Shown here in pieces: positions 1,979-13,934 of a stretch of DNA of 64,000 bases. A model generated the notes under the pieces. The model did no database searches and had not been told where the DNA came from. It saw only the letters and a list, made by a program, of their open reading frames with translations. A program made the position numbers and the translations under genes. The stretch is taken from contig OZ246021.1 of NCBI GenBank assembly GCA_965230845.1, forward strand, positions 57,184-121,183, given 5' to 3'. The DNA is from Aquimarina sp. Its GTDB lineage: Bacteria > Bacteroidota > Bacteroidia > Flavobacteriales > Flavobacteriaceae. Numbering within the stretch: the first letter of the stretch is position 1; every line of letters begins with the position of its first letter.

Positions 1979-2132
1979 TTTTATTTTAGTTTTTGTAAGT
2001 AATGTTTCTCACACAAAAGCTTAGTTTCATTCGTACAAATGCTCCGCGTCAAGGTCAAATAAGTTTTACAACTACTTTAACAATGGGCTATACTAAATTT
2101 CTTGTACCTTGTGCGGCAAAGAAATTGACCCT

Positions 2133-3260
2133 ATGAAAATTGCGATTGTTTGTTACCCTACTTTTGGAGGTAGTGGAGTAGTGGCTACCGAGTTAGGTAT
2201 TGCCTTGGCAAAATTGAACCATGAAGTTCATTTTATTACCTATAAACAGCCTGTACGCTTGGATTTGTTAAATCCTAACATTCATTTTCATGAGGTTCAT
2301 GTTCCAACCTATCCGCTATTTTTATATCAACCCTATGAGTTGGCTTTATCTAGTAAGCTTGTGGGTATCATTAAGAAACATAATATAGATGTTCTACATG
2401 TACATTACGCAATACCACATGCGTATGCAGGATACATGGCCAAAAAGATGCTAGAAGAAGAGGGAATTTACATCCCGATGCTAACCACGCTTCATGGTAC
2501 CGATATAACATTAGTTGGTAATCATCCAAATTATAAACCAGCGGTTACTTTCAGTATTAACAATAGCGATATTGTTACTTCGGTTTCGCAAAGTTTAAAA
2601 GACGATACTTTACGTTTGTTCAATATCAAACAGGATATTAAGGTAGTTCCAAACTTTATTGATGTAAGCCAACAGAAAACAAGCTTTACCGATTGCCAAA
2701 GAGAGGTTATGGCAGCACCAGAAGAACGTATTGTGACCCATATTAGTAATTTTAGACCAGTAAAAAGAATTACAGATATCATAGATATCTTTAATAATAT
2801 TCAAAAAGAAATGCCAGCCAAATTGTTGATGGTTGGAGAAGGACCAGAGCGCAAACCGGCAGAACAGAAGTGTAAAGAGCTGGGGATTAAGGATAAGGTG
2901 ATCTTTCTCGGTAATAGCAATGAGATTGATAAGATTTTGTGTTTTTCAGACCTATTCTTGCTACCTTCAGAACGAGAGAGCTTTGGTTTAGCGGCCTTAG
3001 AAGCTATGGTGAATAAAGTGCCTGTTATATCAAGTAATGCCGGAGGAATTCCAGAAGTAAATCGTCATGGGGTGTCAGGGTACCTAAGTAATGTTGGCGA
3101 TGTTGAAGAAATGTCAGCAAACGCGATTAAAATTCTTAAAGATGACGATGTATTAGAACAGTTTAAGGAGAATGCATACAAAGAAGCAAAAACATTTGAT
3201 GTAAACGAAATCGTTCCTAAATACATTGCTTTATACGAAGGTGCATTAGCAATGACTTAG
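2133..3260 (+). CDS. bshA: N-acetyl-alpha-D-glucosaminyl L-malate synthase (bacillithiol pathway, GT4)
   Basis: MKIAIVCYPTFGGSGVVATELG, HVHYAIPHA, TTLHGTDIT and ESFGLAALEAM motifs. The ATG at 2133 is preferred over the GTG at 2109. Confidence 0.93.
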   Translation: MKIAIVCYPTFGGSGVVATELGIALAKLNHEVHFITYKQPVRLDLLNPNIHFHEVHVPTYPLFLYQPYELALSSKLVGIIKKHNIDVLHVHYAIPHAYAGYMAKKMLEEEGIYIPMLTTLHGTDITLVGNHPNYKPAVTFSINNSDIVTSVSQSLKDDTLRLFNIKQDIKVVPNFIDVSQQKTSFTDCQREVMAAPEERIVTHISNFRPVKRITDIIDIFNNIQKEMPAKLLMVGEGPERKPAEQKCKELGIKDKVIFLGNSNEIDKILCFSDLFLLPSERESFGLAALEAMVNKVPVISSNAGGIPEVNRHGVSGYLSNVGDVEEMSANAIKILKDDDVLEQFKENAYKEAKTFDVNEIVPKYIALYEGALAMT

Positions 3261-3295: not shown

Positions 3296-3784
3296 TTAGA
3301 ACTGATAACGGATTCCTAACCCTAGGTCAAAATCTAGATCATCATCATTGTCTCCAAAACCTATTTCTGGTCTAAAATCAAGAGATATGAGTATAGGAAT
3401 ATTAAAGTTGTATTCTATACCGATGTCACCAGCGATAAATAGATAGGTATCACTATCATCTCCACCAGGGAAATTATCATCCAGATCTACATATACAAAT
3501 CCTCCACCAGGACCTACATACCAATTAAATCCTTTGTCCAGATTAAATACCCATTGGTATAGCCCTGTAAATTTGATAGCATCTCCAAAATCGAAATCTC
3601 TCCATCCCAAATCAAACTCAAGTCGATTGTTTCCGCTTAAGCCTAATTGATAAGATATTTCTGCACCAAAACCATCATCATCTCCCAACCTCAAACCTAA
3701 TGCGTGCTTAGAAATTTCTTGTGATTGAACTGTACTTATCGACGCTACAATAAAAGCTACAATAAATAAAATACGTTTTGTCAT
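3296..3784 (-). CDS. Small outer-membrane beta-barrel protein
   Basis: Signal peptide, alternating amphipathic strands and C-terminal GIRYQF. Confidence 0.75.
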   Translation of the reverse strand: MTKRILFIVAFIVASISTVQSQEISKHALGLRLGDDDGFGAEISYQLGLSGNNRLEFDLGWRDFDFGDAIKFTGLYQWVFNLDKGFNWYVGPGGGFVYVDLDDNFPGGDDSDTYLFIAGDIGIEYNFNIPILISLDFRPEIGFGDNDDDLDFDLGLGIRYQF

Positions 3785-3862: not shown

Positions 3863-4675
3863 TTACGATTTTTGTAGCAGCATGTCAGTGCTTTCAAAGA
3901 TTTTGTCGGCGGAGTTTGCTATAAATCCGGTAAATAGCGTTCCGTCTTGTTTTGGGTAGCGATAAGCGAATTCATAATAACATGAAGTGATGTTTTGCTT
4001 TCCTTCTTCAAATTCGAATTCAATTTTATCTGCCAGTATGCTGGATTGTTCCAAAAGTTGATCTGCAGAGCCTTTGATTTCTCCACCCGAGGTATTCATC
4101 TGGAAACCATTGTTTTTCAAGAAACGATTTACCTGCTCTAGCATATCAAAAGAACTCAATTTGTTTACATCTACGGTGAAGTGATTTGAGCAAAAACCAT
4201 TAACATACATCCATGCGGCATATTCAGATTCCTCAAGCAATGAAGTATAGGTAGCATGCGAAGGAGTTTTCCAAACTCTACCCTTCAGAATCAGATCATC
4301 CTGCAAGAATACTTCTTGATCCACTTCATCTAGTAGTAATTTAACAGTGTTTTGTAATTGTACAGAACATTCTTCCAACAACAATTGACTGATAAAAATT
4401 TTTGGAGCATCTGGATCCTCTTGATGTTCAAAATGTTTTGCATATAACTTTTTAGCTTCAAAACGATATTCTCCTTTTGAGATATATCCCATTTGTATAA
4501 AAACACGGGAAAGTACATCGATGTTTACTCTGGGATCGTTGAAAGTTCGTATTGCAATATGATCGTTGAAAACAGTATTTCCTTCCTCCTCAAATAGTGA
4601 TTTTACCTTTTGCGCAGAGGGAGTCTTGGTAGTATATTGTTTCCATAATTCATTAAAAAAATCAGTAGTATTCAT
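3863..4675 (-). CDS. DUF1338 family protein (2-oxoadipate dioxygenase/decarboxylase, HglS-like)
   Basis: NDHIAIRTF, NHFTV and YYEFAYR supply the His/His/Glu metal triad typical of DUF1338. Confidence 0.8.
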   Translation of the reverse strand: MNTTDFFNELWKQYTTKTPSAQKVKSLFEEEGNTVFNDHIAIRTFNDPRVNIDVLSRVFIQMGYISKGEYRFEAKKLYAKHFEHQEDPDAPKIFISQLLLEECSVQLQNTVKLLLDEVDQEVFLQDDLILKGRVWKTPSHATYTSLLEESEYAAWMYVNGFCSNHFTVDVNKLSSFDMLEQVNRFLKNNGFQMNTSGGEIKGSADQLLEQSSILADKIEFEFEEGKQNITSCYYEFAYRYPKQDGTLFTGFIANSADKIFESTDMLLQKS

Positions 4676-4834
4676 AACGTCTTGTTTTTTAATGTAAAAT
4701 TATTAGTTTTGACTTTAATAAGGGTTATATGTAGTCTATTTAATCTTGTTAGGTTTGTTTTTGTGTTAAACTAACAGCAAAGTGTTTGAAAATAGCTCTG
4801 TTTTGAATAATTTCATCTATAAAACAATACTGTC

Positions 4835-5320
4835 ATGCATCATTTTGATTATATCGATCAGCAAATTTTGTTACAGATCAGGGAGGATGCAAGAAAACCT
4901 TTCTCTCAGATAGCAGAAGACTTGAAGATTTCTAATTCACTGGTACATCAACGTATACGAAAACTAAAGGAACAAGGAGTTATTGCCAAGGCAGAATTTG
5001 TCGTGGACGAGAAAAAGATTGGTTTCAGAACAAAATCATATGTGGGCATCCGTCTTAGAGAAGCGCGTTATGCCGAGCAGGTAGTTGCTGGATTAAAAAA
5101 AATACCAGAAATTTTAGAATGTAATTTTGTATCTGGTAATTATGCTATTTTCATTCTTATTTTTGCATATGATAACCACCACCTAAGAAAAATTCTATAT
5201 GAGCAAGTTCATCATATTGATGGAGTAGCAGGAACTGATAGTTTTATTTGTTTTGATACCAATTTCAAAAGACCCGTATCGTTAGAAGCTTTAACGAAGA
5301 AAGATGTTTATGATCAATAA
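4835..5320 (+). CDS. Lrp/AsnC family transcriptional regulator
   Basis: N-terminal DYIDQQILLQIREDARKPFSQIAEDL HTH plus C-terminal RAM-type domain. Confidence 0.92.
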   Translation: MHHFDYIDQQILLQIREDARKPFSQIAEDLKISNSLVHQRIRKLKEQGVIAKAEFVVDEKKIGFRTKSYVGIRLREARYAEQVVAGLKKIPEILECNFVSGNYAIFILIFAYDNHHLRKILYEQVHHIDGVAGTDSFICFDTNFKRPVSLEALTKKDVYDQ

Positions 5321-8237
5321 GGCATTACTTCACCAATTTCAGAATACGCTAGAGGGAGAGTTTAGATTTGATTCACTCTCCAAGCGGTTATATGCTACAG
5401 ACGCCTCTGTGTATCGAAGAATACCCATAGCCGTGGCATTTCCAAAGACGATATCAGACATTAAAAAGATAATCACTTTTGCTGAAAAACATAAAATAGG
5501 CATTATTCCCAGAACAGCAGGAACTTCTCTTGCCGGTCAAAGTGTTGGAGAAGGAATAGTGGTAGATGTATCTAAGCATTTTACCAAAATAGTTACGGTA
5601 GACGAAGCGAACAAAACAGTTACCGTTCAGCCAGGTGTAGTTCGAGATGATTTAAATAGATATCTAAAACCGTACGGACTTTTCTTTGGTCCCAATACAT
5701 CAACCTCTAATAGATGTATGATTGGAGGAATGGTAGGTAACAACAGTAGTGGTACCACCTCCATACAATATGGTGTTACTCGTGATAAAGTGCTGAGCAT
5801 GCAAACAATTTTATCTGATGGTAGCGAAGCTTCTTTCTCTAATGTATCTCCAGAAGAGTTTCATGCAAAACGGCAATTGTCTTCATTAGAAGGTTCTATT
5901 TATCAGACTATTTATGATGCACTTTCTTCAAAAGCAGTACAAGAGCAAATCAAAACCAATTTTCCAAAGGCCGAGATTCACCGTCGTAATACAGGATATG
6001 CGATCGATGAATTGATTGAATCTGAAGTTTTCTCTGATAATAGTCAACCTTTTAATATGTGTAAGCTGTTATCGGGTAGTGAGGGAACACTGGCTTTTAC
6101 TACAGAAATTACACTACAGTTGGATGAGCTCCCGCCAGAAGAATCCTCTATGATTGCTGCACACTTTAATAGTATCGAGGATTGTATGAACGCGGTTAGC
6201 CCTGTTATGCAACACAAGTTATTCACTTGTGAGATGATGGATAAAACGATCCTTGATTGTACACTGAATAACATCGAACAATTAAAAAACCGATTTTTTA
6301 TCAATGGTGATCCGCAAGCGATATTGATGTTAGAGTTGAGGAGCAATAGCAAAGATGATCTGGAAATCCAGGAAAAACAACTGCTTGCTGAAATTCAAGA
6401 TTCTGGGCTTAGCTATGCAAACCCTATATTGAGAGGTAAAGAAATTGACCAGGCCTTAGAACTTCGAAAAGCAGGTCTGGGGTTGTTGGGTAATATTGTT
6501 GGTGATAAAAAAGCCGTAGCCTGCATAGAGGATACTGCAGTAGCCATTCCTGATTTGGCTTCATATATTTCTGAGTTTACCGAAGTGATGAAATCTTATG
6601 ATCAGCAGGCGGTTTATTATGCCCATGCTGGAGCAGGAGAATTGCATTTACGCCCCATATTGGATTTGAAGAAAAGCGAAGATGTAACGCTTTTCAAGAA
6701 AATTACAGATGATGTCGCTACTTTGGTGAAAAAATACCAGGGATCCATGAGCGGAGAACATGGGGATGGTATCGTAAGAGCCAGTTATATTCCTTATATG
6801 ATTGGTAGTGATAATTTTGAAATCGTAAAGCGAATCAAAAAACTATTTGATCCTAACGCTATTTTTAATCCTGGAAAGATTGTTGATGCATATGCAATGG
6901 ATGAAAAGTTGCGTTACGAAGTGGATCGAAAGGAACCGGATATAGATACATTACTTAACTTTTCAGATTCCTTAGGAATTCTAAGAGCCACAGAAAAGTG
7001 TAATGGGAGTGGAGATTGTAGGAAATCGGTAGAAGCTGGAGGGACGATGTGCCCAAGTTATCGTGCTACAAAAAATGAAAAAGATACAACCAGAGGAAGA
7101 GCTAATGCATTAAGAGAGTTTCTTACTACTGGAGGGAAAGAAAACAACTTTGATCATAAGGAATTAAAGGAAGTATTTGATCTTTGTTTGAGTTGTAAAG
7201 GATGTGCAAGTGAATGTCCTTCTAATGTAGATGTAGCTGCGCTAAAGGCAGAGTTCGAATATCAATACCAAAAAGAAAACGGAACATCCCTAAGAACAAA
7301 GCTATTTGCGCACAATAATCGTTTGAATGGGTTAGGGCGAATAAGTACAGGTATTACCAATTTCTTTTTCACTAATAGTTTCACTTCGGGAATTTTGAAA
7401 TCTGCATTAGGAATTGCTAAAGAACGAGAACTCCCAACACTGAGCAAGTTTTCTTTACGGAAATGGTGTGATCAAAACCTTAAAAGTTTACAACCTGAAA
7501 GTCCAATCAAATCTATATATCTTTTTGTAGATGAGTTTACGAATCATTTAGATACGGAAATAGGAATTGATGCAATAAAATTACTGACAAAGCTGAATTA
7601 TGAAGTCAAAATAGCAGATCATAAGGAGAGTGGCCGATCATATATTTCAAAAGGGTTATTACAGCATGCCAAGAAGTTTGCAAATCAAAATGTAGAACTT
7701 TTTGCTCCTTTTGTATCCCAAGATGTTCCATTGATTGGGATAGAGCCTTCTGCTATTCTTACGTTCAGAGATGAATATCCCAGATTAGCGAAGGATAAGA
7801 ACAAGGCAAAACAGCTAGCTTCAAATACGTATTTGATCGATGAGTTTTTAGCTTCGGAAATTGAACTAGGAAATATAAAACAAAATCAATTTTCTACTGA
7901 AAACAAAGTGATTAAGTTACATGGACACTGTCATCAAAAGGCCTTGTCTGGAGTACATCATACGTTCACTACTTTGAATTTACCAGAAAACTTTAAGGTA
8001 ACCATCATCCCTTCGGGATGTTGTGGTATGGCAGGATCATTTGGTTATGAAAAGGAGCACTATGAAATCAGCATGAAAGTAGGGGAACAAACCTTACTCC
8101 CGGCAGTAAGAAAGGCTCCAAAAGATACACTTATTGCTGCTGTAGGTACAAGTTGTAGACATCAAATAAAAGACGGAACACAGCGCGAAGCACTGCATCC
8201 CGTCTCTATATTGTATGATGCTCTGATTAAAAATTAA
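5304..8237 (+). CDS. FAD-binding and Fe-S-binding oxidoreductase (YdiJ/D-2-hydroxyacid dehydrogenase-like)
   Basis: YATDAS...GTSLAGQ FAD domain, SGEHGDG, CNGSGDC and CLSCKGCASECP ferredoxin motifs, HGHCHQK and GCCGMAG CCG domains. Confidence 0.88.
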   Translation: MFMINKALLHQFQNTLEGEFRFDSLSKRLYATDASVYRRIPIAVAFPKTISDIKKIITFAEKHKIGIIPRTAGTSLAGQSVGEGIVVDVSKHFTKIVTVDEANKTVTVQPGVVRDDLNRYLKPYGLFFGPNTSTSNRCMIGGMVGNNSSGTTSIQYGVTRDKVLSMQTILSDGSEASFSNVSPEEFHAKRQLSSLEGSIYQTIYDALSSKAVQEQIKTNFPKAEIHRRNTGYAIDELIESEVFSDNSQPFNMCKLLSGSEGTLAFTTEITLQLDELPPEESSMIAAHFNSIEDCMNAVSPVMQHKLFTCEMMDKTILDCTLNNIEQLKNRFFINGDPQAILMLELRSNSKDDLEIQEKQLLAEIQDSGLSYANPILRGKEIDQALELRKAGLGLLGNIVGDKKAVACIEDTAVAIPDLASYISEFTEVMKSYDQQAVYYAHAGAGELHLRPILDLKKSEDVTLFKKITDDVATLVKKYQGSMSGEHGDGIVRASYIPYMIGSDNFEIVKRIKKLFDPNAIFNPGKIVDAYAMDEKLRYEVDRKEPDIDTLLNFSDSLGILRATEKCNGSGDCRKSVEAGGTMCPSYRATKNEKDTTRGRANALREFLTTGGKENNFDHKELKEVFDLCLSCKGCASECPSNVDVAALKAEFEYQYQKENGTSLRTKLFAHNNRLNGLGRISTGITNFFFTNSFTSGILKSALGIAKERELPTLSKFSLRKWCDQNLKSLQPESPIKSIYLFVDEFTNHLDTEIGIDAIKLLTKLNYEVKIADHKESGRSYISKGLLQHAKKFANQNVELFAPFVSQDVPLIGIEPSAILTFRDEYPRLAKDKNKAKQLASNTYLIDEFLASEIELGNIKQNQFSTENKVIKLHGHCHQKALSGVHHTFTTLNLPENFKVTIIPSGCCGMAGSFGYEKEHYEISMKVGEQTLLPAVRKAPKDTLIAAVGTSCRHQIKDGTQREALHPVSILYDALIKN

Positions 8238-9525
8238 CTTTAATCATATAGAGCGAACTGGCATCTATGGTAGGTTTAGTTCCTGGTAGTACTTTTTGTT
8301 CGATAACGCCATTATCGTCTTCATCGGTAACGGCAAAATCATCATCATTAATGCACCCTAATGTATGATTATCGATAAGCCAAATACCCTCAAGTTTATC
8401 ATGAGGATATCCAGTTTTATTCACCAAATCCGCAACTAGAACTTTAGAAACTGGTTGAATTCCTGCGGCTTCCAGTTCTTCCCAGCTTGATTCTTCCAGA
8501 GTTTTCTCGTTAATCAAGAGCCCAAACTCGTCATTGTCATTTGCTGCGCTAACATCTGTGGCATTAGAAACATCAATCTTGTAGATATGCTTTTGTGCTG
8601 GTCCACTTCCGGAAAACTTTCCATCTCTTTCTATGACCAAGAATTCGGTATTGGATAGGCCAACAATTTCAGAATTGGACAAATTAGCATCTTCTTGTCT
8701 GTACAGAAACTGTTTGGTTGTACCTGTTTGTAAGTCAAAAAACAAAATACGAGTAAGGTCAGTTCTGATTCGTATAGGATTGTACATAGTAGATTGCATG
8801 ATACCCACTAATGTAGATTCATCAGGAGTAATTCCTAAACCTTCCATTCCTCGATTTGGTCTTCGTTTACCAAATACTGCAGGTATTTTCCGTCCTCCAT
8901 TCCCTTCATTAATACCGATAGGGGATATACGTTCCAGTTCAACACCATCCTGAGAATAATGTACTATATGCGGGCCGTATTCATCAGAAATCCAAAAAGT
9001 ACCGTCGTGTAGGGCTACAATACCCTCGGCATCCAACCCAAAATCATCAAATGGCAATTGATTTCCATCAATATCGTAAGGGATTTCTCCGGTTGCACCT
9101 TTCCCTTCGGGATTAGGGATTCCTGAAATTGGGTTTCCGTTGGGGTCTTTCAATAAGATTTCTTTTTTGAGGATGATATTGCCTTCAGCTGTAACAGCAA
9201 ATAACCCAATTCTTGGAGTGTAACTGGCAACAGGGAATTTTTTACCATCCAGAAAATCTGTATTGGGACCACGATCGGTAATGGCATAAAATTCTCCCTT
9301 CTTTGTTGGGTGGGCGGTAGCACCAGATCCATATCCTCCATTTCTTATCTCGACACCTTCGGTAGTTGTGGTTAGCACCTCAAAAGGTAATTCGTATTGC
9401 GTATTTTCTTCTAAGACTAATTGGGGTGGAACAGATATTGGACCTCCGGTATAATCATCGAGGTAATGGCAAGAATACAAAAGTAGTATTGCTACAAAAG
9501 GTAGCAAGGTTTTTACAGTTTTCAT
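8227..9525 (-). CDS. Esterase-like activity of phytase family lipoprotein
   Basis: Lipobox LYSC; TDRGPN, DAEG, WISDEYGP, NRGMEGL, KLEG and NDDDF motifs. Confidence 0.8.
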   Translation of the reverse strand: MKTVKTLLPFVAILLLYSCHYLDDYTGGPISVPPQLVLEENTQYELPFEVLTTTTEGVEIRNGGYGSGATAHPTKKGEFYAITDRGPNTDFLDGKKFPVASYTPRIGLFAVTAEGNIILKKEILLKDPNGNPISGIPNPEGKGATGEIPYDIDGNQLPFDDFGLDAEGIVALHDGTFWISDEYGPHIVHYSQDGVELERISPIGINEGNGGRKIPAVFGKRRPNRGMEGLGITPDESTLVGIMQSTMYNPIRIRTDLTRILFFDLQTGTTKQFLYRQEDANLSNSEIVGLSNTEFLVIERDGKFSGSGPAQKHIYKIDVSNATDVSAANDNDEFGLLINEKTLEESSWEELEAAGIQPVSKVLVADLVNKTGYPHDKLEGIWLIDNHTLGCINDDDFAVTDEDDNGVIEQKVLPGTKPTIDASSLYMIKVNF

Positions 9526-10676: not shown

Positions 10677-12587
10677 ATGATTACAAAACCGGTGTATATT
10701 GTTTATGGAGTTTCCGGAAGTGGAAAGACAACAATAGGGTCAGCGTTGGCAAAGAAAATGGAAGTTCCATTTTATGATGCTGATGATTTCCATCCTGAAA
10801 GGAATATTCAAAAAATGGCCAAAGGTTTTCCCCTTAATGATGATGATAGAGCTCCGTGGTTACAGGATTTGGCCAATAACATTTCAAAATGGAGTACTGA
10901 TCAAGGTGCGGTTTTGGCTTGCTCTGCTCTCAAGGTGAGTTATCGTAACATATTAGCTTCTGTTGTTCCAGAAGCCGTGAAATGGATTTTTTTGGAAGGG
11001 AGTTATGAGCTGATTTTTGAGCGAATGCAATCCAGAAAAAATCATTTTTTTACTTCAGAAATGCTGCAATCGCAGTTTGATACTTTAGAAGTTTGGAAAG
11101 AGGGAATTTCAGTAGATATTGATCAGGAAATACAAAGAATTGTAAAGGAAATTGAATCAAAACTTAAGATGCAAAAATCAGAAATAGGAGTAATCGGTTT
11201 GGGAGTGATGGGAAAGAGTTTGGCAACAAATATATTATCCAAAGGATTTCGTTTGTCAGTTTTTAATCGTCATCTGGCAGGAAAAGAAGAAGATATTGCC
11301 AAGAACTTTGTAAGTGAGCATTCCAATATTCCACTAGGGTTTGATGATTTGTCATTGTTTGTGGCATCATTGGCGCAACCCAGAACGATTTTAATGATGG
11401 TCAATGCCGGACCGGCGGTTGATGTGGTGATAGAACAGTTGTTGCCTTTATTGGATGAAAGTGACTGTGTAATTGATGGGGGTAACTCTCATTACAAAGA
11501 CACCTTGATTAGAGAAGCAAAACTCAGAAAAAAAGGAATTTTATACGTTGGGGCAGGAATATCTGGAGGAGAAGAGGGGGCGCTTTATGGGCCTTCGATT
11601 ATGCCTGGTGGTTCTAAAAAAGGATATGAGAATTGCGGTCCATTTCTGGAAGCCATTGCCGCCAAAGATGAAAAAGGAAATCCTTGTTGCTCTTATATCA
11701 GTCCTGATGGAGCCGGCCATTTTGTAAAGATGGTGCACAATGGGATCGAATATGCAGAGATGCAATTGTTGGCCGAAATTTATCATTTTCTTCGATTTCA
11801 TTTAGGCAATTCACCTGATGCTATCCATGAAATTTTTACGTCCTGGAGATCCAATAATAAAGACAGCTATCTTTTGGAAATTACAGCAGATATTCTTCAG
11901 AAAAAGGAAGGAGAAGATTTCTTGATAGATAAGATTTTGGACAAGGCAGGGCAAAAGGGTACAGGAGGATGGTCCACACAGGCAGCGTTAACCTATGGTA
12001 TTCCAGTGTCTACAATTTCTGAAGCGGTAATGACCAGGTATTTATCAGCAAAAAAAGAAGAACGTATTGAAGCATCAAAAGTATATTCCAGAACTGCAAG
12101 TATAGTAGAGGCTGACACTGCAATTGTGGAGATGTTGGAGGAGGCCTATTATGCGGCTAGCCTAGTTAATCATGCTATTGGTTTTGACTTGATGAAACAA
12201 GCTGCCAAAGAAAATAAGTGGGAGCTAAACTTCTCAGAAATTGCCAGAATTTGGACCAGAGGATGTATCATAAGAAGCGATCTTATGGAGAATCTCACTT
12301 TATTTTTTAAAGATAACAACAACACCCCACTATTGATGCTTGCAAAAGTTGTAGAAACTCTGGATCAAAGTATAGATGCATTGACAACAGTGGTATCAAA
12401 AGGGATTGGTATGAAATGCCCTTTGCCAGTATTATCGGCTGCAGCTAATTATTTGTTGAATTATACATCGGAAACCATGTCTGCCAATATGTTGCAAGCA
12501 CAGAGAGACTATTTTGGAGCTCATACGTATCAGCGGGTGGATAAAGGAGCTGGAGCATATTTTCATACAGATTGGAAAAATATATAA
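10677..12587 (+). CDS. gnd: Fused gluconokinase (GntK) and NADP-dependent 6-phosphogluconate dehydrogenase
   Basis: Residues 1-164: GVSGSGKTT, DADDFH, PLNDDDRAPWL, MLQSQFDTLE. From residue 165: GVIGLGVMG, GISGGEEGA, VKMVHNGIEY, QRDYFGAHTY. Confidence 0.93.
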   Translation: MITKPVYIVYGVSGSGKTTIGSALAKKMEVPFYDADDFHPERNIQKMAKGFPLNDDDRAPWLQDLANNISKWSTDQGAVLACSALKVSYRNILASVVPEAVKWIFLEGSYELIFERMQSRKNHFFTSEMLQSQFDTLEVWKEGISVDIDQEIQRIVKEIESKLKMQKSEIGVIGLGVMGKSLATNILSKGFRLSVFNRHLAGKEEDIAKNFVSEHSNIPLGFDDLSLFVASLAQPRTILMMVNAGPAVDVVIEQLLPLLDESDCVIDGGNSHYKDTLIREAKLRKKGILYVGAGISGGEEGALYGPSIMPGGSKKGYENCGPFLEAIAAKDEKGNPCCSYISPDGAGHFVKMVHNGIEYAEMQLLAEIYHFLRFHLGNSPDAIHEIFTSWRSNNKDSYLLEITADILQKKEGEDFLIDKILDKAGQKGTGGWSTQAALTYGIPVSTISEAVMTRYLSAKKEERIEASKVYSRTASIVEADTAIVEMLEEAYYAASLVNHAIGFDLMKQAAKENKWELNFSEIARIWTRGCIIRSDLMENLTLFFKDNNNTPLLMLAKVVETLDQSIDALTTVVSKGIGMKCPLPVLSAAANYLLNYTSETMSANMLQAQRDYFGAHTYQRVDKGAGAYFHTDWKNI

Positions 12588-12590
12588 CAC

Positions 12591-13934
12591 ATGGATTACA
12601 ATTTATTGATTGCAGTAGGCATAGGCGTTTTTGCATTACTTTTTATGATATTGAAATTAAGAATGCAGGCCTTTATTGCATTGTTGATTGTATGCATAAT
12701 AGTAGGAATTGGTGCAGGGTTGTCCCCAGATGTGATTTTTGAGAGTATCAAAAATGGGATGGGAAATACGTTAGGGTTTGTGGCAACTGTAGTAGGTTTG
12801 GGAGCACTTTTTGGTGGCTTGCTAGAAAACTCAGGAGGTGCACGAGGATTGGCTACCTATATCCTGAAATTGTTTGGAGATAAAAATGCTTCCTGGGCTT
12901 TGATGATTACGGGTTTTATTGTGGCCATTCCCGTTTTTTTTGATGTTGCATTCATTATTCTGATCCCTCTAGTATACGCTATAGCAAAAAAGACCGGGAA
13001 ATCCTTGTTGCTGTACGCTATTCCTTTGTTAGCAGGATTAGCGATTACCCATAGTTTTATACCTCCAACACCTGGCCCAATTGCAGTGGCAGATATATTA
13101 GGGGCAAATTTGGGATGGGTAATTGTATTTGGTTTTATCGTTGGTATCCCAGCAGCGATAATTGGAGGGCCTCTCTTTGCAAGTTATATTTCGAAACGAA
13201 TAGAAGTAGTGCCCCCAGAGATGAATTTGGTAGCCGATGAGGAGGTTGCATCTCCTAACCCTTTTATAATAATTGGCATTATTGTATTACCTATTCTTTT
13301 GATAGTCATAAAAACTTTGTTGTTGGGAGACTGGTTTGATCACGAGTCTTTACCCAAACAAGTAATTTATATTGTGTCTTTGTTAGGGCATCCTTTTTCT
13401 GCCTTATTAATAGCTAACTTATTAGCATGGTATGTACTGGGAGTTCGGAGAGGTGTAGGTAAGGATGCACTCTTAAAACTTTCTATGGAATCTTTTAAAC
13501 CTGCTGGAGCGATTATACTATTAACTGGAGCAGGAGGAGCATTCAAACAAATTTTGGTGGATACCAAGGTGGGAGAGTTATTGGCGTCTACCTTACAAAA
13601 TGCAGCGATACATCCTTTGTTGTTTGCATTTATCATTGCTTCATTAATCAGAGTATTACAAGGATCAGCAACCACGGCTATGATTGCCAGTGCTGGAATT
13701 ATGTCACCTGTAATTGCTTCGGGTGATTTCAGTCCGGCTCAGATTGCACTTACAGTAATTGCTGTAGCTTCTGGGTCTACAATTTTGTCGCATGTGAATG
13801 ATAGTGGGTTTTGGTTAGTAGGACAGTATTTGGGACTCACAGAAAAACAAACTTTCCGTTCCTGGACAGTAATGACCACTTTGATTGCTTTAACAGGACT
13901 GTTTACTGCTATGATTTGTTGGTATTTGTTCTAA
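12591..13934 (+). CDS. GntP family gluconate:H+ symporter
   Basis: Multi-TM protein with HSFIPPTPGP and SHVNDSGFW motifs; starts 3 nt after the gnd stop. Confidence 0.9.
   Translation: MDYNLLIAVGIGVFALLFMILKLRMQAFIALLIVCIIVGIGAGLSPDVIFESIKNGMGNTLGFVATVVGLGALFGGLLENSGGARGLATYILKLFGDKNASWALMITGFIVAIPVFFDVAFIILIPLVYAIAKKTGKSLLLYAIPLLAGLAITHSFIPPTPGPIAVADILGANLGWVIVFGFIVGIPAAIIGGPLFASYISKRIEVVPPEMNLVADEEVASPNPFIIIGIIVLPILLIVIKTLLLGDWFDHESLPKQVIYIVSLLGHPFSALLIANLLAWYVLGVRRGVGKDALLKLSMESFKPAGAIILLTGAGGAFKQILVDTKVGELLASTLQNAAIHPLLFAFIIASLIRVLQGSATTAMIASAGIMSPVIASGDFSPAQIALTVIAVASGSTILSHVNDSGFWLVGQYLGLTEKQTFRSWTVMTTLIALTGLFTAMICWYLF

Follow-up and report, generated by a model that had tools for sequence, protein, structure and literature searches.

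A DUF1338-Lrp gene cassette beside a core YdiJ-like dehydrogenase gene in Aquimarina sp., with a predicted role at the end of lysine breakdown

Among the DUF1338 enzymes studied so far, HglS of Pseudomonas putida, YdcJ of Escherichia coli, AT1G07040 of Arabidopsis and FLO7 of rice all turn 2-oxoadipate into 2-hydroxyglutarate (2-HG) (PMC7286885), and the frequent location of DUF1338 genes next to genes named 'glycolate dehydrogenase' (YdiJ-like) has been used as pathway evidence (10.1101/450254). The P. putida YdiJ orthologue, PP_4493, is the D-2-hydroxyglutarate (D-2HG) dehydrogenase of lysine catabolism (10.1101/450254; PMC12297413), E. coli YdiJ is strictly D-2HG-specific (PMC9504171), and DhdR and HgcR are the regulators known for such dehydrogenases (PMC12297413). 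The subject of this work is a locus in which a DUF1338 gene, an Lrp/AsnC regulator gene (lrp) and a YdiJ-like oxidoreductase gene (ydiJ) are neighbors. It lies in a window of 64,000 nucleotides (the whole stretch of DNA that was analyzed; assembly GCA_965230845.1, contig OZ246021.1, positions 57,184 to 121,183 of the forward strand) from the complete 5.44-Mb genome of an Aquimarina sp., whose closest named relative is Aquimarina spongiae (96% identity between the DUF1338 proteins). An earlier note, made from the DNA letters alone, had described the DUF1338 gene as divergent from the regulator gene and the stop of the latter as overlapping the oxidoreductase start; the three open reading frames, the 159-bp intergenic region and the overlap were found exactly as described:

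3863 to 4675, minus strand: short-form (270 aa) DUF1338 / hydroxyglutarate-synthase-type Fe(II) oxygenase (PF07063, 3LHO, 6W1K, conserved residues)
4676 to 4834: divergent control region between DUF1338 and lrp, 159 bp, three conserved blocks (alignment of 75 loci)
4835 to 5320, plus strand: Lrp/AsnC regulator, 161 aa, winged helix-turn-helix (HTH) and RAM/ACT-like ligand domain, cassette-specific orthologue (Pfam)
5304 to 8237, plus strand: YdiJ-like single-chain FAD (GlcD-type) + 2x[4Fe-4S] + GlpC/CCG oxidoreductase, 977 aa (Pfam, NCBIfam, E. coli YdiJ alignment)

The lrp stop codon ends at 5320, and the ATG of ydiJ precedes this end by 17 nt if translation starts at 5304, or by 11 nt if it starts at the in-frame codon at 5310.

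The P. putida proteins HglS (PP_5260), YdiJ (PP_4493) and HgcR (PP_4494) represent the same two reactions as are proposed here for Aquimarina, and the P. putida dehydrogenase also has a divergent or upstream dedicated regulator. HglS is a long form of about 460 aa, however, and the short-form FLO7, which is similar to the Aquimarina protein, is about 15% identical to it; hglS and ydiJ are unlinked in P. putida and linked in Aquimarina; and HgcR senses D-2HG, whereas the Aquimarina regulator is an Lrp/AsnC protein, apparently co-transcribed with ydiJ. Rice FLO7 (6W1K), Arabidopsis AT1G07040 and the 3LHO protein share with the Aquimarina enzyme the short single-domain form, the His/His/Glu triad, the H-x3-R motif and the lack of a C-terminal substrate loop, and the plant enzymes also work downstream of a saccharopine-type lysine route. 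Unlike them, the Aquimarina enzyme is bacterial, carries no transit peptide and stands under a dedicated Lrp-type regulator, and its partner is a YdiJ-type Fe-S dehydrogenase in place of the GlcD-only D-2HG dehydrogenase (D2HGDH) of plants, which is linked to the electron-transferring flavoprotein. E. coli YdiJ is collinear with the Aquimarina oxidoreductase over the whole length, with the same GlcD + Fe-S + GlpC architecture, and is encoded by a core gene of the Enterobacteriaceae (PMC9504171), as the YdiJ-like protein is in the Flavobacteriaceae; unlike the Aquimarina pair, E. coli ydiJ and ydcJ are not neighbors, and the Aquimarina protein is only 29% identical to YdiJ, below the NCBIfam equivalog cut-off. 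The route and the gene pairing are thus already described in other bacteria and plants, and the enzyme is already named in public databases; the points specific to this locus are the Lrp-type regulator, its transcriptional fusion to a core ydiJ gene and the clear anatomy of cassette and backbone. We propose, as the probable reading, that the DUF1338-Lrp cassette together with the core YdiJ-like gene finishes lysine breakdown from 2-oxoadipate through D-2HG to 2-oxoglutarate under Lrp control.

The DUF1338 protein and the YdiJ-like oxidoreductase

The profile search suggested by the earlier note matched the DUF1338 protein to PF07063 (HGLS, 2-oxoadipate dioxygenase/decarboxylase) with 110.3 bits (gathering cut-off 25); the match links residues 25-239 to profile positions 37-282 of 386. 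The nearest solved structures are 3LHO (E 3.5e-84), an uncharacterised 267-aa DUF1338 protein of Shewanella frigidimarina, and the rice FLO7 hydroxyglutarate synthase 6W1K (E 4.9e-36). Alignment to FLO7 confirmed the intact metal triad that had been claimed, with His39, His165 and Glu235 falling on the FLO7 triad motifs, and located an arginine, Arg43, four residues past the first His (DHIAIRTF aligned with DHFAFRTF of FLO7); all four residues are invariant in 92/92 Bacteroidota homologues. The His/His/Glu triad is the metal ligand in DUF1338 enzymes, and the arginine of the H-x3-R motif (Arg74 in HglS, Arg64 in FLO7) holds the distal carboxylate of 2-oxoadipate and determines specificity (PMC7286885). 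The C-terminal loop of HglS (Val402/Ser403) is absent from the Aquimarina protein, which ends at residue 270 and whose profile match ends at position 282 of 386. Because FLO7 is also without this extra loop and yet converts 2-oxoadipate (PMC7286885), the loop marks the HglS/YdcJ subtype and not the whole family. On the strength of the FLO7 and 3LHO matches and the retention of His39, Arg43, His165 and Glu235, the DUF1338 protein is, as judged from its sequence, a short FLO7/3LHO-type hydroxyglutarate synthase with a complete set of catalytic and substrate residues, and the predicted reaction is 2-oxoadipate + O2 -> D-2-hydroxyglutarate + CO2. Close homologues are named '2-oxoadipate dioxygenase/decarboxylase (family protein)' in UniRef and in newer NCBI records.

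The 977-aa oxidoreductase consists of FAD_binding_4 (residues 41-174), FAD-oxidase_C (278-526), Fer4 (4Fe-4S dicluster, 565-643) and GlpC-like (617-974) domains, and contains the motif CNGSGDC...CP at 566, the cluster motif CLSCKGCASECP at 628 and a CCG motif (GCCGMAG) at residue 906. Its earlier description as an FAD + Fe-S + CCG oxidoreductase therefore holds for the FAD and 4Fe-4S domains and for one CCG motif, while the Pfam CCG model gave no score at E <= 0.001. The protein aligns end to end with E. coli YdiJ (residues 24-974 against 34-1017, E 2e-139), and the best NCBIfam family is YdiJ (NF049975). It is called YdiJ-like here, and not YdiJ, because its score is below the equivalog cut-off of that family and because Fe-S D-lactate dehydrogenases have the same architecture. 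The flavobacterial proteins carry generic names in databases. A second ydiJ-like or GlcD-like paralogue was sought in the source genome and none was found, the 977-aa protein being the sole FAD-oxidase_C / GlcD-superfamily protein there. It is predicted to be a quinone-linked D-2HG dehydrogenase, and we infer its specificity for D-2HG from the genomic context.

An accessory cassette, its regulator and the divergent control region

Two comparison sets were used: 80 related loci from Aquimarina, Tenacibaculum, Polaribacter, Kordia, Pseudotenacibaculum and uncultured Flavobacteriaceae for synteny, and one genome per genus from 121 Flavobacteriaceae genera for distribution (L-numbers denote loci and G-numbers genomes, G000 being the source genome). 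In the synteny survey, also suggested by the earlier note, a YdiJ-like gene was located within about 1.4 kb of DUF1338 in 80/80 loci and an Lrp gene between the two in 77/80, with variable outer flanks; the arrangement is therefore not due to chance. The distribution of the genes in the family differs: a YdiJ-like gene is found in 111 of the 121 genera, DUF1338 in 20 (the 270-aa type in six, and one of about 305 aa in fourteen), and DUF1338 together with an orthologue of the cassette Lrp in six. The gene order in the window is bshA - omp162 - [DUF1338 - Lrp] - ydiJ - (phytase-like) - metallophosphoesterase, with the left boundary of the cassette formed by the following gene:

3296 to 3784, minus strand: omp162, small beta-barrel-like outer-membrane protein (weak OMP_b-brl match)

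In all eight cassette-less genera that were checked (8/8), omp162 is the direct divergent neighbor of ydiJ, and the fetched flanks contained bshA in 5/8 and the metallophosphoesterase gene in 6/8. Judged from gene order, this comparison shows DUF1338 and lrp to be an accessory cassette of about 1.5 kb located exactly between omp162 and ydiJ, in a backbone of bshA-omp162-ydiJ-metallophosphoesterase. The YdiJ-like gene is a core gene whose role does not depend on DUF1338, and the presence/absence pattern of DUF1338 and lrp may reflect insertion or repeated loss. DUF1338 and ydiJ also occur together in other arrangements, i.e., in tandem (L105), in the order DUF1338-PCD-...-ydiJ (G404; PCD is the piperidine-6-carboxylate dehydrogenase discussed below) and with a GlcD-only oxidase (L107).

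In the Lrp/AsnC protein, Pfam detected HTH_24 (residues 5-50), HTH_AsnC-type (5-45) and AsnC_trans_reg (70-141). None of the NCBIfam equivalogs AsnC, Lrp, LysM and LrpA was reached (AsnC 105.5 bits against 227, LysM 68 against 180), so that no characterised orthologous group was matched from which a ligand could be predicted. The only other sampled genera with an orthologue of the cassette Lrp (60-64% identity) are the five that also have the 270-aa DUF1338, and the two genes are adjacent in each of them; the remaining matches among the 121 genera belong to a paralogue at 32-42% identity, detected in most of the sampled genera. In the source genome, an AsnC-type regulator gene (39% identity to the cassette Lrp) follows the gene for a saccharopine dehydrogenase (SDH)-like protein at G000:C1:2641730-2645642 (L085, L086), with an alanine dehydrogenase gene nearby; this AsnC-type paralogue may be the actual lysine sensor.

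The spacer between DUF1338 and lrp is 155-165 bp long in 74/78 loci, and alignment of 75 loci resolved three conserved blocks:

4695 to 4711: left block, near-palindrome TAAAATTATTAGTTTTG (consensus CAAAATTAnTAGTTTTG), readable as back-to-back -7 boxes of the Bacteroidetes type (TAnnTTTG) on the two strands (75 loci)
4757 to 4770: central block TTTTGTGTTAAA (consensus TTTTrTGTCAAAT), candidate Lrp site (highest-information block of the 75-locus alignment)
4800 to 4807: right block GTTTTGAA (consensus TTTTGAC), candidate lrp-proximal promoter/operator element (about 30 nt upstream of the lrp ATG)

In the left block, TAnnTTTG is present on the minus strand 15-29 nt upstream of the DUF1338 ATG in 65/75 loci and on the plus strand about 120 nt upstream of the lrp ATG in 54/75; the minus-strand -7 box of the window is TAATTTTA, with one mismatch. 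The near-palindrome is a candidate operator as well. The central block is an inverted copy of the TTTGAC element of the left block, and the spacing between it and the left TTTGAY is exactly 57 nt in 49 of the 53 loci that have both, as it is in the window (4708 and 4765). For the right TTTGAC, the distance to the lrp ATG is 30-34 nt in 23 loci, and that to the central block is 35-37 nt in 21. The blocks may be regarded as candidate Lrp sites. Bacteroidetes promoters use boxes other than those of the sigma-70 type. A scan of the region for sigma-70-type promoters and for terminators did not rise above shuffled expectation, and a search of the long lrp leader/spacer for a riboswitch or other known RNA gave no Rfam match at E <= 1. 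The lrp stop and the ydiJ start overlap or are at most 9 nt apart in 45 of 50 loci analyzed, which argues for co-transcription of lrp and ydiJ. In a test for an internal ydiJ promoter, few of the cassette loci had TAnnTTTG upstream of ydiJ, but the cassette-less control genomes gave no clearer picture, so that the test speaks neither for nor against such a promoter.

Other features of the neighborhood were recorded as well. The bshA gene next to omp162 (window 2109-3260) belongs to the backbone, and its product scored 567 bits with TIGR03999 (cut-off 274), the model for the N-acetyl-alpha-D-glucosaminyl L-malate synthase BshA, which indicates bacillithiol biosynthesis. The omp162 gene has its own TATATTTG box about 33 nt upstream of its ATG. 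On the other side, a phytase-like (PF13449) gene at 8227-9525, minus strand, shares 11 nt with the 3' end of ydiJ and is present only in some Aquimarina loci, and a terminator-like hairpin (8207-8169, minus strand) is located within the coding end of ydiJ. Further downstream, at 10677-13934, the window encodes a 636-aa fusion of gluconokinase (residues 5-163) and 6-phosphogluconate dehydrogenase (165-635), followed by a GntP gluconate permease; other Aquimarina loci contain matches to the fusion over its full length (residues 1 to about 635).

The link to lysine and competing explanations

The genes of a saccharopine route are scattered in the source genome. The aminoadipate-semialdehyde (L-piperidine-6-carboxylate, P6C) dehydrogenase, PCD, scored 838 bits with NF050084 (equivalog cut-off 730); the SDH-like protein is closest to yeast Lys9 and to the SDH domain of human AASS (E 1e-65 to 1e-68), and a protein resembling lysine-ketoglutarate reductase (LKR) is closest to the LKR domain of human AASS (E 7e-35), the LKR and SDH assignments being based on similarity to solved structures only. 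PCD is present in 112 of the 121 genera. In more distant Bacteroidota, DUF1338 (34-59% identical) directly adjoins PCD in L097, L102, L103 and L104, where L102 has the operon LysR<->[saccharopine-DH-family - DUF1338 - PCD], and in the family sample it does so in five genera (G381, G325, G404, G411 and G344). The lysine reading is well supported because LKR, SDH and PCD are in the genome and because DUF1338 adjoins PCD elsewhere. The 'lysine-catabolic unit' of the earlier note is accordingly upheld in its link to lysine but not as one dedicated three-gene unit, the YdiJ-like gene belonging to the core and only DUF1338 and lrp to the variable cassette. Two candidates for the first steps were rejected: for the L-lysine 6-transaminase route the source genome has no match above the TIGR03251 cut-off, the best being ornithine aminotransferase, and the AlaDh_PNT gene next to the SDH-like gene, considered as LKR, encodes a true alanine dehydrogenase (TIGR00518, 516 bits against 392), the LKR-like gene being elsewhere. 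Several general aminotransferases are encoded in the source genome and could perform the step from 2-aminoadipate to 2-oxoadipate. A class-III aminotransferase-like domain at G000:C1:1899510-1900478 is located inside a 4361-aa open frame, which is probably a megasynthase of the nonribosomal peptide synthetase/polyketide synthase (NRPS/PKS) type.

In the proposed pathway, L-lysine would be converted to 2-aminoadipate by the LKR-like and SDH-like enzymes and piperideine-6-carboxylate dehydrogenase, and 2-aminoadipate to 2-oxoadipate by a transaminase. The DUF1338 enzyme, with Fe(II) and O2, would decarboxylate and hydroxylate 2-oxoadipate to D-2HG, which the YdiJ-like flavo-iron-sulfur dehydrogenase would oxidise to 2-oxoglutarate, passing the electrons to the quinone pool. 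Lrp would bind the 159-bp divergent region and control DUF1338 in one direction and the lrp-ydiJ transcript in the other; because of the overlap between lrp stop and ydiJ start, induction of the enzyme that produces D-2HG would always be accompanied by synthesis of additional D-2HG dehydrogenase. Candidate effectors of Lrp are lysine, 2-aminoadipate, 2-oxoadipate and D-2HG, and the branch would form a coenzyme A (CoA)-independent alternative to the glutaryl-CoA route.

Several observations weigh against this proposal. A 2-aminoadipate transaminase of the PP_4108 type was not found in the source genome at the NF049976 cut-off of 650 (best score 231 bits). The genome encodes a classical glutaryl-CoA dehydrogenase (E 1e-125 to human GCDH), so that the DUF1338 branch is an alternative fate of 2-oxoadipate and flux through it is not required for lysine use. 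The Lrp gene is lost and the enzyme pair kept in L051 (Aquimarina sp. U1-2), L071 and L076 (Tenacibaculum geojense and an uncultured Tenacibaculum), in which DUF1338 is still divergent from the ydiJ-like gene but no Lrp gene could be detected in the space between the two; the three loci resemble natural variants that have lost the regulator. The YdiJ-like protein reached only 631 bits with NF049975, for which the equivalog cut-off is 1350, at the low identity to E. coli YdiJ given above. Its gene is present in about 90 sampled genera without DUF1338, and its primary role therefore lies elsewhere, e.g., in clearing D-2HG made by SerA or in D-lactate oxidation. The same domain architecture is found in Fe-S D-lactate dehydrogenases (Dld-II, P. 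putida PP_4737). Enzymes of this architecture do oxidise D-lactate (PMC12297413).

The last of these points, together with the presence of the gene in 111 genera regardless of DUF1338 and the distance from YdiJ, would fit an explanation in which the YdiJ-like protein is a general or D-lactate-type (Dld-II-like) Fe-S D-2-hydroxyacid dehydrogenase and the cassette merely occupies a permissive site, its adjacency having no metabolic meaning. We consider this unlikely, since the adjacency is kept in all 80 loci across Aquimarina, Tenacibaculum, Polaribacter, Kordia and others despite their differing flanks, DUF1338 and ydiJ are linked independently in other gene orders (L105 and G404), with a GlcD-only oxidase as the neighbor in L107, the reading frames of lrp and ydiJ overlap in most loci, and the genome has no other GlcD-family enzyme to remove D-2HG; the lysine pathway proposed here would also be compatible with an enzyme of broad specificity that accepts D-2HG among other substrates. 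Far more remote is the chance that the short DUF1338 enzyme uses a different 2-oxoacid and that the cluster is unrelated to 2-oxoadipate. No short bacterial DUF1338 protein has been assayed, 3LHO being uncharacterised (PMC7286885), and the Val402/Ser403 loop of P. putida HglS is missing from the Aquimarina protein, with its partial profile match (37-282 of 386), but rice FLO7 converts 2-oxoadipate without that loop, the specificity-determining Arg is invariant, and the repeated location of DUF1338 beside P6C dehydrogenase connects the family with the aminoadipate branch.

A further explanation accepts the module as proposed and changes its supply: 2-oxoadipate would come mainly from 5-hydroxylysine (from the collagen of an animal or sponge host), D-lysine or tryptophan/kynurenine, and Lrp would sense such a compound or an intermediate in place of lysine. 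In L097, an Lrp<->DUF1338-PCD cluster includes a 765-aa fusion of an APH-type kinase and a class-III aminotransferase (L097:15657-17951, G051:C23), directly upstream of a second ydiJ-like paralogue. This fusion, which we take to resemble hydroxylysine kinase and phosphohydroxylysine phospho-lyase, may feed collagen-derived hydroxylysine into aminoadipate semialdehyde. The widespread Lrp paralogue beside the SDH-like gene is, moreover, a better candidate for a lysine sensor than the cassette Lrp, and the P. putida ydiJ regulator HgcR senses D-2HG and not lysine (PMC12297413). The kinase-aminotransferase fusion is not among the class-III aminotransferases of the source genome, however, while LKR, SDH and PCD for L-lysine are all present, and we give a change of source only a small chance; as all these sources meet at the 2-aminoadipate/2-oxoadipate node, it would refine the lysine pathway proposed here and not contradict it.

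Implications for the Flavobacteriaceae

It is possible, though we hold it only tentatively, that the cassette Lrp is a new kind of sensor for the aminoadipate branch, responding to 2-oxoadipate, 2-aminoadipate or D-2HG and to no proteinogenic amino acid, and that DUF1338 and lrp together form a self-contained and transferable plug-in that makes a housekeeping D-2HG dehydrogenase part of an inducible catabolic operon. The capture of ydiJ transcription in this idea is suggested by the overlap of the lrp stop with the ydiJ start and by the back-to-back -7 boxes inside the conserved palindrome. If the ligand of Lrp is indeed a pathway intermediate, Lrp could become a small biosensor part beside DhdR and HgcR.

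Current knowledge is not overturned by this locus. The CoA-independent end of lysine breakdown (2-oxoadipate -> D-2HG -> 2-oxoglutarate), established in P. putida and plants, would be extended by it to marine Flavobacteriaceae, in which it seems to supplement, as an option, a route from lysine to aminoadipate and a YdiJ-like dehydrogenase that are both near-universal. The contrast between cassette and backbone provides a natural experiment on the way in which an accessory enzyme becomes connected to a core enzyme that detoxifies or recycles.

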